Source: a virus (lineage: Duplodnaviria; Caudoviricetes). From it: 64,000 nt of DNA. The stretch is from IMG/VR virus record IMGVR_UViG_3300002307_000018, positions 200,638-264,637 of that record, one strand, 5' to 3'. Shown here piece after piece: positions 13,045-25,072 of this stretch (position 1 is its first letter; the number at the start of each line of letters is the position of its first letter). A program made the translations under genes and the position numbers. The notes below the pieces were generated by a model, which made no database searches, had not been told where the DNA came from, and was given only the letters and a program-made list of their open reading frames with translations.

Positions 13045-13135
13045 TTGTTATATTGAAATACACTATACGCTATACGGGTCTAGGTCACGTGGCACGTTAG
13101 ACTTTCATTGCTTATAATGTACTTCAATATAACAA
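13045..13135 (-). ncRNA. conserved-stem ncRNA, copy A
   Basis: TTGTTATATTGAAGTACATT...AGTGTATTTCAATATAACAA closing stem between two tRNAs. Confidence 0.7.
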
Positions 13136-13137
13136 CT

Positions 13138-13214
13138 TGGTAGGGGCACTGAGACTTAAACTCAGAACCTATCGGTTAAAAGCCGATTGCTCTAATCAGT
13201 TGAGCTATACCCCC
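13138..13214 (-). tRNA. tRNA-Lys(TTT)
   Basis: ATCGG-CTTTTAA-CCGAT; variant T-loop TTTAAGT; CCA. Confidence 0.88.
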
Positions 13215-13375
13215 ATTGGGTCGTAATTGTGCATATCACTTGCACCCTTACGATCTGATACTTTTGTATTCCTGCGTTCCGTTTTGTACGGTTTACTATG
13301 TGAGCCAGCGCAACGTGCGGCGGCTAATCTAGCAAAACGATTACGAGGAACAATGGTTTTACCCTTTGTCTTCAT
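13205..13375 (-). CDS. small basic protein
   Basis: MKTKGKTIVPRNRFARLAAARCAGSHSK... after AGGAG SD; last codons overlap the tRNA-Lys 5' end. Confidence 0.45.
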   Translation of the reverse strand: MKTKGKTIVPRNRFARLAAARCAGSHSKPYKTERRNTKVSDRKGASDMHNYDPMGV

Positions 13376-13538
13376 TTTACTACTCCTTATCTTGGTTAAT
13401 TTTACGACCGCTTTTGCGTGACTTCACGTCAACGGTAAACTTGATTTTCTTGCCATTGCCAGCCTGAACAACTCGGCAAGCGTGATAGCAACGCTTGGAT
13501 CCGTAAGCTTTCATTTACATCTCCTATTGTATGTACAT

Positions 13539-13567
13539 ATTATAGCACTATCGTGATTTATCGTCAA
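13539..13567 (-). promoter_or_regulatory. sigma70-type promoter
   Basis: TTGACG-N17-TATAAT. Confidence 0.8.
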
Positions 13568-13601
13568 GCTTTATGTGTTGTATTTTTACAACACTGCTGA
13601 A

Positions 13602-13679
13602 TGGAGGCGCCGGTCAGATTCAAACTGACGGTTGTAGAGATTTGCAGTCACTTGCCTTGGGTCACTCGGCCACAGCACC
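13602..13679 (-). tRNA. tRNA-Cys(GCA)
   Basis: loop CTGCAAA, U73, CCA. Confidence 0.85.
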
Positions 13680-13681
13680 AT

Positions 13682-13776
13682 TGGTAGTAGATAAAGGATT
13701 CGAACCTTTCCGTTGCAGCCCATCTGACCACTCTCCCGAGGATATAAATCTCAGCCGCACACCAGTGCTATCTACC
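13682..13776 (-). tRNA. atypical tRNA-like RNA, anticodon TAT (Ile), long variable region
   Basis: acceptor GGTAGAT/ATCTACT, perfect T-arm, minimal D-arm GCAC-TGGT-GTGC, loop TTTATAT, ~26-nt variable region, CCA. Confidence 0.6.
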
Positions 13777-13785
13777 ATTATTGAA

Positions 13786-13954
13786 TTTGTAAGTAGATCC
13801 GCTCTCACTATCGGAACCATTTGAGGCTTTAATCAAGGGCGCCTGCCTGTCGAGAGTACGTTACTAGGGAGATACTTGTTTGCTACTAGGCTAATTAGGC
13901 CCAACTCACCTTTATCTTGCGGAACAGGCTTTCTCTCTTGCTAACACTTACAAA
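13786..13954 (-). ncRNA. structured ncRNA of unknown family
   Basis: closing stem TTTGTAAGT/ACTTACAAA; internal GCCTGT/ACAGGC, GAGAG/CTCTC and CCGC/GCGG complementarities; no ORF. Confidence 0.55.
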
Positions 13955-13957
13955 ACT

Positions 13958-14032
13958 TGGAGCGGGTAACAGGATTCGAACCTGCGACGAACAGCTTGGA
14001 AGGCTGACACTCTACCACTGAGTTATACCCGC
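13958..14032 (-). tRNA. tRNA-Gly(TCC)
   Basis: CAGC-CTTCCAA-GCTG; U73; CCA. Confidence 0.92.
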
Positions 14033-14040
14033 ATAAACTT

Positions 14041-14241
14041 TTACTCTACTGCTTTTGCAGCTTTGGCTTCTTTACGAGCCAGCTTTTCAGCAGTGATTTC
14101 GTTACGACGTACTTTGATTAGTTTCGCCAACTCAGCCAATGCCTTACGAGCCCGTGTACCTGCGGCACTATTGCCGCTGATAAACTTTGTATCTTCTTCT
14201 TGCCATACTTCAATTTGTTCGTTAATCTTTTTGATTGTCAT
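14041..14241 (-). CDS. histone H1/Hc1-like small DNA-binding protein
   Basis: GNSAAGTRARKALAELAKLIK matches the bacterial histone-H1-like family signature (GNKAAGTRARK). Confidence 0.7.
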   Translation of the reverse strand: MTIKKINEQIEVWQEEDTKFISGNSAAGTRARKALAELAKLIKVRRNEITAEKLARKEAKAAKAVE

Positions 14242-14294
14242 GCTAATTCCTTTTAGAGTATCTATTTACTGTCGCAGTGACAGTGTAAAATATA

Positions 14295-14323
14295 ATTATA
14301 CACTAGTGCTGATTTGTTGTCAA
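14295..14323 (-). promoter_or_regulatory. sigma70-type promoter
   Basis: TTGACA-N17-TATAAT. Confidence 0.8.
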
Positions 14324-14336
14324 CACATTCGGACAA

Positions 14337-23520: not shown

Positions 23521-23595
23521 TGGTACCCCCTGATGGAATTGAACCACCATCACTAAGTTCGTAGCCTAGTATCCTATCCGTTGAACGAAGGGGGC
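23521..23595 (-). tRNA. tRNA-Arg(ACG)
   Basis: CTAGG-CTACGAA-CTTAG; CCA. Confidence 0.9.
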
Positions 23596-23604
23596 GTTGT
23601 TAAT

Positions 23605-24201
23605 TTAAAATCCAAACATTATTTTTCTAGCATCTTCAAAATAAATGTTCTCTGGGTGCAGCGGTCTTAGCGTAAGAATGATACGCTCGTTTGCTGACTG
23701 TCTGTTATCAAAATCGTGCCATATCTCTGTGTTAAACAAGACAGCCTCATTTGGCTTAGCACACATTGTTTTCAATGGACAATGTTTGGAAGTATCGCAG
23801 CCAATAAGTCTACGGCCGGTTTGTCCAGGCGGATTATCGTCTGTTTGATAGTCTTTCATATCTTCATCCGAGAACCAACTAGTGATACACTTATCATCTA
23901 GTATTTTTATCGGATAGTTAAAACTAATGTGCGTAGCTATACCATCCTTGTGTACTCTGCCATAATGGCCAGATTTACTAACCAACAATGATACACGCTC
24001 ATGATTTAATTCAAACTGAGTAGACATCGGCGACATATCAAGAATCTCTTGACCCAGTTCTTTGTCGAATTTGTGTTGTGCAAACTGATATGGGAATTCT
24101 ATCTTAGATGCAATATCCTGACAGCGATTGATTATTTGTGTCAACATTGGATACGTAAATCTAATATAATATGGGCTACAATCTTCTATGATACTATACA
24201 T
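23605..24201 (-). CDS. 2OG-Fe(II) oxygenase-like protein (paralog of 31718..32353)
   Basis: VHKDG...NTEIWHDFDN...RIILTLR; shared IIEDCSPYYIRFTY N-terminus. Confidence 0.65.
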   Translation of the reverse strand: MYSIIEDCSPYYIRFTYPMLTQIINRCQDIASKIEFPYQFAQHKFDKELGQEILDMSPMSTQFELNHERVSLLVSKSGHYGRVHKDGIATHISFNYPIKILDDKCITSWFSDEDMKDYQTDDNPPGQTGRRLIGCDTSKHCPLKTMCAKPNEAVLFNTEIWHDFDNRQSANERIILTLRPLHPENIYFEDARKIMFGF

Positions 24202-24216
24202 ATCTTCTCTAAAAAT

Positions 24217-24293
24217 TGGTCGGAGTACAAGGATTCGAACCTTGGACTTCTTGCTCCCAAAGCAAGCACTCTACCAGACTGAGCTACACTCCG
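24217..24293 (-). tRNA. tRNA-Pro(TGG)
   Basis: CTTGC-TTTGGGA-GCAAG; CCA. Confidence 0.92.
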
Positions 24294-24303
24294 AAATTAC
24301 TTC

Positions 24304-24540
24304 TTAACTATAGACATCACCGTGAGGTAACTCTGTGCCATTGGCAAGAGCAATAACCGCATCAACTGACTCCATTACTTCCCAGTTACCATGCGGAGGA
24401 ATGAACACCATAGTGACTTCTACGATCTCACCAGTGGGTCTTGTTACCGTTGATTTAAATATAGATACAATTAAATCAGCATTGATTGCAATTGGCTCGT
24501 TTAGAAATTCTGGTCGTGCGTTAGTTAATTTAATAAACAT
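24304..24540 (-). CDS. FlbD-like small protein
   Basis: MFIKLTNA...INADLIVSI...WEVMESVDAVI resembles the FlbD family pattern. Confidence 0.5.
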   Translation of the reverse strand: MFIKLTNARPEFLNEPIAINADLIVSIFKSTVTRPTGEIVEVTMVFIPPHGNWEVMESVDAVIALANGTELPHGDVYS

Positions 24541-24558
24541 ATTTTCTCTAAGTTAATT

Positions 24559-24634
24559 TGGTTGCGACGTGACGGAATCGAACCGCCCCCTGTGGCTTAT
24601 GAGACCACCGTGCTTACCTACACACTCACCCGCA
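24559..24634 (-). tRNA. tRNA-Met(CAT), third CAT tRNA
   Basis: GTGGT-CTCATAA-GCCAC; acceptor stem with a one-base bulge; CCA. Confidence 0.75.
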
Positions 24635-24651
24635 ATTGTTACTATACTGAC

Positions 24652-24680
24652 ACTATAACACACACAGTATTTAGTGTCAA
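24652..24680 (-). promoter_or_regulatory. sigma70-type promoter
   Basis: TTGACA-N17-TATAGT upstream of tRNA-Met. Confidence 0.7.
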
Positions 24681-24681
24681 G

Positions 24682-24826
24682 GTATTTGTTGAGCAAGCTG
24701 CTATCACTGCCACGCCCAGTTCATTCGGCAGGGGTACGTCATGATGACGAACGTTCGTTCACTGACGGTTAGGAAAGGTAACCCGTGTGCATTTAACACT
24801 GCTCAAACAACTTGCTCAACAAATAC
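24682..24826 (-). ncRNA. structured ncRNA with 16-bp perfect closing stem (copy K, divergent)
   Basis: GTATTTGTTGAGCAAG/CTTGCTCAACAAATAC; several internal hairpins; begins 4 nt after the tRNA-Ala CCA. Confidence 0.6.
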
Positions 24827-24830
24827 ATTA

Positions 24831-24905
24831 TGGTGGAGGGTAAGGGAATCGAACCCTTAACTCATGCTTGCAAAGCACATGTGTTCCCGTTAGCACCAAC
24901 CCCCC
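24831..24905 (-). tRNA. tRNA-Ala(TGC)
   Basis: loop TTTGCAA; G3-U70; CCA. Confidence 0.92.
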
Positions 24906-24915
24906 ATTAAAACTT

Positions 24916-24990
24916 TGGTACCCCCGACAAGAATCGAACTTGTAATAAAGGCTTATCAAGCCTCCGGTATAACCGTTTACCTACAGGGGT
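24916..24990 (-). tRNA. tRNA-Ile(GAT)
   Basis: GAGGC-TTGATAA-GCCTT; CCA. Confidence 0.9.
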
Positions 24991-24997
24991 GTATTTT

Positions 24998-25072
24998 CAA
25001 TTTATTGAGTACACTACTCGCCCTAATCCCCTAAGCGGGGAGGTACGCTTAGACCAATGTACTCAATAAATT
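24998..25072 (-). ncRNA. conserved-stem ncRNA, copy J
   Basis: CAATTTATTGAGTACATT...AGTGTACTCAATAAATTG. Confidence 0.6.

Follow-up and report, generated by a model that had tools for sequence, protein, structure and literature searches.

We analysed a 64,000-nucleotide stretch of a virus genome (Duplodnaviria; Caudoviricetes), here called the window, which is the terminal 64 kb of the 264.6 kb IMG/VR virus record IMGVR_UViG_3300002307_000018 (CheckV completeness 74%). Its tRNA cluster contains a set of long hairpins, the stalk cassettes, in each of which one conserved helix (the stalk) closes an insert of its own. These cassettes are a real, widespread and undescribed RNA family of uncultivated freshwater giant phages. 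Within long untranslated operons of these phages, the stalk serves as a precise connector between neighbouring tRNAs or tRNA-like RNAs. By analogy with known systems, the family would be of the processing-stalk or modular small-RNA kind.

The first-pass annotation of the window had proposed eleven hairpins bounded by inverted repeats, nine with a common closing stem and two divergent. All eleven inverted repeats are present. Nine of them share the helix 5'-AUAUUGAAGUACAUU...AGUGUAUUUCAAUAU-3' on the minus strand, which is the sense strand of the tRNAs, and a covariance model unites these nine as one family. A total of 56 non-identical copies was gathered; 55 of them made up the alignment used for covariation and for the covariance model, with which the nine window elements scored 37.6–66.6 bits on the minus strand. 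When the window was searched with the 15-mer arm, allowing up to 3 mismatches, 19 occurrences were found against 5.0 ± 1.8 in shuffled sequences, and none of 100 shuffles reached 19. The two divergent elements fared differently. W10 (24996..25075, minus strand; arm UUUAUUGAGUACAUU), immediately upstream of tRNA-Ile, is a divergent member of the family, scoring 24.6 bits (E ~0.002) although it was outside the training set, and it has a counterpart in the related locus L139 (19533-19621; 29.7 bits; related phage loci are designated here by L and a number). The other, a long hairpin at 24678..24830 (minus strand) with a different stem of 25 bp, GUAUUUGUUGAGCAAG..., gave no match to the model at E<=10 and was rejected as a member. 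It has the same design with another sequence, and its 3' arm overlaps a promoter-like site (24680-24652).

The stem duplexes are 19–27 bp long and bulge-free, with at most one mismatch. Their core, AUAUUGAA/UUCAAUAU, consists of 8 bp that are invariant across the 56 copies. Beyond the core lie 8 more pairs that covary, including two habitual G.U pairs: position 8 is G.U in 44 of 56 copies (A-U, G-C or C-G in the remainder), and position 13 is U.G in 45 of 56 (mostly C-G or U-A in the remainder). The outermost 3–6 pairs vary freely in sequence while pairing is retained, in agreement with the earlier proposal that the outer flanks covary. Over the 19 modelled pairs of the 55-copy alignment, 96.8% of the cells were paired, and both sides had changed in 13 of the 19 pairs. 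None of 500 shuffles reached any of these measures, and slid registers were only 28–51% paired.

It had also been proposed, from the G-U imperfections, that the minus strand is the one that folds. Counted on the tRNA strand (56 copies, 23 positions), G.U combinations numbered 157 and A.C combinations 29, and the window elements scored 13–31 bits higher with the model on the minus strand than on the plus strand. Therefore, the folding species is the tRNA-sense single strand; RNA is the natural reading, and single-stranded DNA is compatible with the pairing alone. Every copy is co-oriented with the tRNAs. Isolated copies set the polarity of the element as 5' arm, insert, 3' arm. In the tandem array an alternative register, pairing a 3' arm with the 5' arm of the next unit, is possible on paper, but the isolated copies fix the other polarity.

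When the whole 264.6 kb record was scanned, family hairpins were confined to the tRNA cluster at 213.6–225.7 kb, as the earlier observation that they lie only among tRNAs implied. The exact gapped arm pattern was found in 24 stretches on ~20 IMG/VR phage contigs, from lakes, and in no copy among 185,579 prokaryote genomes. Among cultured phages there was no match to the array (megablast) or to a T-type cassette (blastn). The stalk elements matched no Rfam family at thresholds up to E<=5, and a search of the window and six related loci at gathering and permissive thresholds returned only tRNA, tmRNA (transfer-messenger RNA) and chance microRNA-like matches; the absence of a recognised family was thus confirmed. 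Literature searches aimed at such an RNA family found no description.

The metagenome runs that contain the window are of freshwater and lake origin. All 31 tRNA genes of the window are encoded by the minus strand. By comparison of ribonucleotide reductase, the closest cultured relatives are phages of Xanthomonas, Ralstonia and Stenotrophomonas (52–60% identity). Related phages carry a permuted (two-piece) tmRNA (L147 5891-6171, L144 4826-5042, L137 5298-5746), which also scores on the betaproteobacterial tmRNA model. Because of these reductase relatives and this tmRNA, the host is probably a freshwater proteobacterium.

The stalks are set among the tRNAs with precision. The 5' arm begins (UAUUGAA) 0–1 nt past the encoded CCA of tRNA-Gln and tRNA-Val and 6–9 nt past tRNA-Lys(UUU), and the 3' arm (UUCAAUA) ends 1–16 nt ahead of the next tRNA. 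At the tRNA-Gln and tRNA-Val junctions the A of the core is A76 of the tRNA, and the two G residues that open the next tRNA pair with C74-C75. This onset of the stem at CCA, the tRNA-like units between stalks and the exchange of inserts at fixed slots, both described below, are additions to the first-pass annotation.

The main stalk/tRNA operon is headed by a sigma-70 consensus promoter (TTGACA-17-TATAAT; 18911..18939, minus strand) that matches at 12 of 12 positions and stands ahead of the array, just as had been annotated. It is followed by a boxA-like motif, GCUCUUUAACAA (18872..18883, minus strand), 5 nt ahead of the outer stem of the first stalk. The same layout, namely promoter, conserved leader, boxA-like GCUCUUUAA(C/A)AA (at most one mismatch) and first stalk, was observed in the window and 5 related loci, promoter and leader being kept in L143, L146, L152 (twice) and L154. 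We take the boxA-like motif to be identical to the core of E. coli rrn boxA, and the layout to be that of rRNA operon leaders.

All features of the main operon described here lie on the minus strand. The leader is followed by stalk W1 (18773..18867; stem 22 bp, insert 51 nt; 58.9 bits, with a corresponding fold), by W2 (18590..18769; variant arm AUAUUGAAACUCAUU, stem 25 bp, insert ~132 nt), which scored 37.6 bits from outside the training set, and by W9 (18401..18516; 58.1 bits), which has the variant arm AUUAUUGAACACAU and a T-family tRNA-like insert with the T arm GGGUUCGAUUCCC. A tandem array at 17482-16516 then alternates five stalks with four inter-stalk units, S1 to S4, all of which end in CCA and run into the next stalk. 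Its stalks are W3 (17387..17482; AUAUCGAAG variant, insert 54 nt; 59.1 bits), W4 (17151..17279; insert 87 nt; 61.5 bits), W5 (16905..17032; arm AUAUUGAAGCACAAA, insert 86 nt; 54.4 bits), W6 (16738..16816; insert 37 nt; 63.6 bits) and W7 (16516..16637; insert 80 nt; 66.3 bits), which ends 15 nt ahead of tRNA-Asp. An isolated stalk, W8 (13044..13136; 66.6 bits), carries a K-type insert and stands between tRNA-Lys(UUU) (13138-13214) and tRNA-Met (12966-13043).

The inter-stalk units were compared with those of related phages, where S1, S2 and S4 are 80–93% identical. S1 (17280..17386; T arm GUGGGUUCGAGUCCCAC; minimum free energy (MFE) z −2.26) ends in ACCA. Its L142 copy, 84% identical, shows compensatory changes, and relaxed ARAGORN reads S1 as a tRNA-Ser with an insertion. 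S2 (17033..17150) is 93% identical in L143 and 82% in L139. S4 (16638..16737), with a 9-bp acceptor-like stem GGUAAUCAC/GUGAUGACC and a T arm, is 80% identical in L148, where it lies between two stalks with other inserts and 4 pairs have changed on both sides. S3 (16817..16904), examined in sequence and fold, had no homologue in the relatives compared. A T arm, a 9-bp acceptor-like stem and compensatory changes are common to S1 and S4. The inter-stalk units are not filler but conserved RNAs, S1 and S4 being tRNA-like.

Every tRNA-Lys(UUU) of the clade (13 of 13) is followed by a stalk. The stalk varies by subclade, AUAUUGAA against AUAUAAAA, and in a distant subclade (L170, L171 and L174) the arm is AUAUAAAAACACAUU/AGUGUGUUU(C/U)UAUAU, the core having changed with pairing largely compensated. 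The slot from tRNA-Lys to tRNA-Leu, which has an insert in L170 and L171, contains in L172 a bare stalk (7744-7782) whose 18 bp are closed by a loop of 3 nt. Because of this bare copy, the helix has a role of its own, with the inserts added on at its tip. Unrelated stalks of similar length, with inserts, are found in relatives as well. Other long insert-bearing hairpins with unrelated stems occur in the same tRNA arrays at L174 8793-8926, L170 1432-1580 and window 17705-17918 (minus strand); examples of such stems are CAAUAUUAGUUUUGCAG... (23 bp) and UUGUGAUUCCGUUAUCACGAGU... (22 bp), so that the design recurs with other sequences.

The inserts range from 17 to 240 nt and fall into more than 40 clusters across phages. 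Hence, the earlier statement that interiors lack similarity holds within the window but not across phages, where insert families recur. The T family comprises window 18401-18516 and eight copies in other phages, these eight in canonical stalks; in its inserts the T arm lies at one nucleotide's distance from the 3' arm, and there are a covarying anticodon-like stem of 7–10 bp, odd loops and a conserved GG loop. The tRNA model RF00005 matched neither 18401-18516 nor the S units at E<=5, so that these are not tRNAs in the sense of that model. A second insert family, cluster 3, shows compensatory changes in two hairpins. A tRNA-like module is present among the inserts only in the T type (W9 and its 8 homologues), and also in the spacer units S1 and S4; most inserts are without it. 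The claim that each interior has hairpins of its own did not hold: MFE z-scores of the window inserts were −1.6 to +0.7, none of them significant against shuffles. Since the inserts fold no better than shuffled sequence, structured payloads are demonstrated, by covariation, for some families only. When the phage's own genome was searched for antisense targets of inserts and spacers, as the guide hypothesis called for, nothing rose above chance.

Behind tRNA-Lys(UUU) the arms of the slot are the same in all phages but its contents are not: the window and L057 have a K-type insert, L148 and L139 a tRNA-like one, and L138 an insert of a third kind. The window and L148 have both flanking tRNAs of this slot in common. 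S4 is kept between the window and L148, while the inserts on either side differ. The W5 insert is identical at 85 of 86 positions in L139, although the median identity of the tRNAs of the two phages is 71%, and a metatranscriptome contig joins S2 to another insert. The slots are fixed, and phages swap the inserts they contain. Near-identity was also observed for single tRNAs: the tRNA-Glu(UUC) genes at window 16350-16424 and 18098-18172 (minus strand) are 97–100% identical to those of L139, L143 and L148, and tRNA-Asp is 98.7% identical in L148, while other tRNAs are ~65–85% identical. Such near-identical genes amid diverged ones suggest that single tRNA cassettes are exchanged in a mosaic manner.

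Several known systems resemble the stalk cassettes in part. Like the stalks of rRNA operons (16S/23S) and the phage RNase III stalks of T7 early RNA, the helix is a long duplex that flanks a stable RNA in an untranslated polycistron; it is uninterrupted for about two turns, and the precursor contains tRNAs and an antitermination leader. Stalk cassettes and rRNA operons are alike in that promoter and boxA head the operon and tRNAs are adjacent, and an RNase III step belongs to the maturation of the T4 tRNA cluster. The differences from rRNA stalks are that a single stalk sequence, conserved from phage to phage, serves more than 40 different small inserts, that the RNAs it encloses measure 17–240 nt and are not rRNAs, and that cleavage is here only inferred. 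Y RNAs and YrlA, which are bound by Ro60/Rsr, share with the cassettes a closing helix of 5' and 3' ends and a variable module, which in some cases resembles tRNA and has a T loop and a loop containing GG. However, in the present case there is no Ro60/TROVE gene in the record, which is 74% complete, no bulged Ro-binding helix and no match to the Rfam models, and in the T-type inserts, unlike Y RNA or YrlA, the T arm is joined directly to the stalk, in the way that it adjoins the acceptor stem in a tRNA. An identity with Y RNA/YrlA was accordingly rejected on both the gene and the RNA.

Small RNAs punctuated by tRNAs are known from mitochondrial tRNA punctuation, from the tRNA-pre-miRNA transcripts of murid herpesvirus 68 and from the stable RNAs rnaC and rnaD of the T4 tRNA cluster. 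There too a hairpin stands right behind a tRNA 3' end, and its ends are defined by tRNA processing enzymes. The sole weak Rfam matches to the stalks were microRNA-precursor models and reflect shape; unlike microRNA hairpins, the stem is conserved and the tip variable, and the host is bacterial, with no Dicer pathway. Integron attC sites and Correia or miniature inverted-repeat transposable elements (MITEs) share conserved inverted ends, variable centres of 50–140 nt and strand-specific folding, and RNase III acts on Correia hairpins that occur in transcripts. The stalk cassettes differ from all of these in having no integrase, core-site motifs, extrahelical bases, target duplication or shared interiors. 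A hairpin of phage lambda at ~44.79 kb folds with z −2.8, but its sequence is unrelated, and the stalk covariance model found nothing in that stretch of lambda.

The first-pass annotation had inferred a common handle, either a protein-binding or an RNase III-like stem, by analogy with Y RNAs. The analogy fails, as described above, and the RNase III-like option fits best, because of duplexes of 19–27 bp, exact abutment on tRNAs, an rrn-type boxA leader, a copy without payload and the presence in relatives of like-designed stalks of unrelated sequence. RNase III substrates are duplexes of this size class. No match to TROVE/Ro60 (PF05731), for which controls were found, to two RNase III models or to dsrm was obtained in the record, and RtcB and CCA-adding enzyme families were likewise without a match there. 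As no gene for a double-stranded-RNA-binding protein, RNase III or Ro60 appears, a host enzyme is the simplest actor. From duplex length, linker position, boxA leader, bare copy, stalks of other sequence and the lack of a partner gene, we favour, tentatively and with slightly less than even confidence, the reading that the stalk is an rRNA-style processing and stability module, probably a substrate of host RNase III. The host enzyme would cut the duplex and so separate neighbouring tRNAs and units; the tRNA ends would be finished by RNase P and 3' trimming; and the leftover half-stalk would shield each freed insert RNA from exonucleases. The identical arms may double as recombination homology, by which inserts would be shuffled between phages.

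Several observations weigh against this proposal. Most tRNA-tRNA junctions of the same arrays are without a stalk; stalks are therefore not required for tRNA release generally. The record being 74% complete, a phage-encoded partner may have been missed. Metatranscriptome contigs that match W4 and S2 speak for transcription, but weakly, for they are few, assembled at low depth, possibly derived from library DNA and without read ends: a contig of metatranscriptome run X25 covers 17171-17275 (W4) with 5 differences, and S2 is covered by contigs of X25 and X26, the matches to W4 and S2 being ~95–97% identical. Finally, and as the weightiest objection, 8 bp are invariant in 56 copies though the tRNAs of these phages are only ~66–71% identical to one another, and RNase III needs no fixed sequence. 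For this reason, the conservation of the arms beyond that of the tRNAs suggests a sequence-reading partner or strong concerted evolution (recombinational homogenisation).

A sequence-reading partner is the essence of one rival, a Y-RNA-like ribonucleoprotein in which the helix would be the sequence-specific dock of one phage or host protein that holds changing effector RNAs, for instance tRNA mimics or decoys, cutting being secondary. It would account for the 8 invariant bp and the near-fixed 7 that follow, conserved above the phages' own tRNAs, for G.U pairs at fixed positions (44/56 and 45/56), which are typical recognition marks, and for a modular architecture with tRNA-like inserts; conserved uncharacterised genes of the tRNA region, YkuK/DUF458 (1047-1550) and Metallophos (10335-10943), offer possible partners. 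Yet a protein site would be expected to leave a bulge or internal loop in the helix, and there is none; the core is replaced, largely by compensated pairs, in L170, L171 and L174, and each of the two G.U positions is Watson-Crick in some copies. The same arrays hold unrelated stalks of equal length, a payload-less copy exists, and the record lacks TROVE, dsrm and RNase III domain genes. We regard this protein handle as possible but rather unlikely. The YkuK/DUF458 (PF04308) gene, RNase H-like and located beside tRNA genes (1047-1550, minus strand), is 62–85% identical in 18 related IMG/VR loci, and its product is a candidate nuclease for the stalks. Its co-occurrence with the stalks was considered as a sign of specific partnership and was found uninformative, because the close relatives all belong to the same phage clade.

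That the stalk is not cut at all is the premise of a second alternative, which we consider improbable: the stalk would passively insulate tRNA folding and, once released by RNase P and tRNA 3' processing, block exonucleases, the inserts being tolerated filler. Stalk ends are tRNA ends (CCA|UAUUGAA ... UUCAAUAU|G1), and tRNA processing alone would therefore excise the stalk; insert folding energies no better than shuffles and the bare copy are likewise as expected for filler. Filler would not, however, explain why several insert families (the T family and cluster 3) are kept with compensatory changes, nor an 85/86 identity of W5 between phages of 71% median tRNA identity. Promoter-proximal stalks have no preceding tRNA, and it is general knowledge that a perfect duplex of 20–25 bp is unlikely to escape proteobacterial RNase III. 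Very improbable, in our estimate, is an element acting at the DNA level, that is, a MITE-like or attC-like palindromic cassette moving as folded single-stranded DNA, with incidental RNA structure. Terminal inverted repeats around unrelated centres of 17–240 nt are attC-like, single-stranded DNA also tolerates G.T pairs, and cassettes do move, the same slot holding differing inserts between phages. Nevertheless, the record has no tyrosine recombinase (PF00589); the arms AUAUUGAA/UUCAAUAU are fully paired, with neither extrahelical bases nor RYYYAAC/GTTRRRY cores; and the orientation is always that of the tRNAs. An identity with integron attC sites was rejected on these grounds. The MITE-like mobility that the first-pass annotation had set against its own view was not borne out either: there is no direct target duplication, the flanks being complementary (CC/GG, GCA/UGY) and not repeated, and copies within the genome have no interiors in common, unlike MITEs, so that a MITE or Correia identity was also rejected. 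Moreover, the inserts bear RNA-level features (T loops, covarying stems), and the boxA leader points to a function at the level of transcription.

With the rRNA-style processing stalk as the favoured reading, the wider meaning of the family may be considered. The spacers of phage tRNA clusters, usually annotated as junk, are here a conserved modular RNA system whose insert contents are shuffled between phages; dozens of inserts share a single helix, and this helix is more strictly conserved than the tRNAs. If the stalk is indeed a processing stalk, giant phages would mature very long untranslated operons by a strategy borrowed from rRNA, boxA included. If the inserts are effectors, they would amount to a large and so far unexploited set of small phage RNAs, some of them tRNA-mimicking, with a bearing on the arms race with host defences that cleave tRNAs. 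The tRNA-mimicking inserts and the universal Lys stalk beside an RNA-repair module point loosely to a link with tRNA-centred host conflict. In a more speculative and rather doubtful extension, the stalk would be a standard socket by which this clade of freshwater giant phages expresses, processes and recombinationally trades small effector RNAs. Among these would be tRNA mimics acting as decoys for, or titrating, the host's tRNA-targeting defences or tRNA enzymes, and the socket linked with tRNA-Lys(UUU) and the RNA-repair module would be the ancestral one.

The RNA-repair-like module lies at 8233-10943 (minus strand), downstream of tRNA-Lys(UUU)-stalk-tRNA-Met. It consists of a T4 Rnl1-type RNA ligase gene (8924-9976), a calcineurin-like phosphoesterase gene (Metallophos, 10335-10943) that is conserved in 13 related loci, and a conserved open reading frame (ORF) of 226 amino acids (8233-8913). 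In L148, these same genes directly follow tRNA-Lys-stalk-tRNA-Met. A further conserved protein of the tRNA region is encoded at 19164-19915. Also in the tRNA region, at 14337-16332 (minus strand), are a homologue of the TctC/Bug-family periplasmic receptors (15457-16332) and an ORF of 377 amino acids without a family, both of which are common to L138 and L143.

Some further tRNA genes were noted. An unannotated gene resembling a class-II tRNA-Ser(UGA) is conserved between phages (window 20279-20371, minus strand; L057 2786-2880, plus strand). It has a 7-bp acceptor stem, a T arm, an encoded CCA and an unusual anticodon stem-loop, CUGG CCUUGAAAA CCAG, and was missed by both ARAGORN and Rfam. 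Window 24563-24633 (minus strand) is a tRNA by Rfam (34.6 bits) that is not in the ARAGORN list. In L169, a 223 kb relative, ARAGORN reports at 130-204 a tRNA with the anticodon CUA, amber-reading and labelled Pyl.

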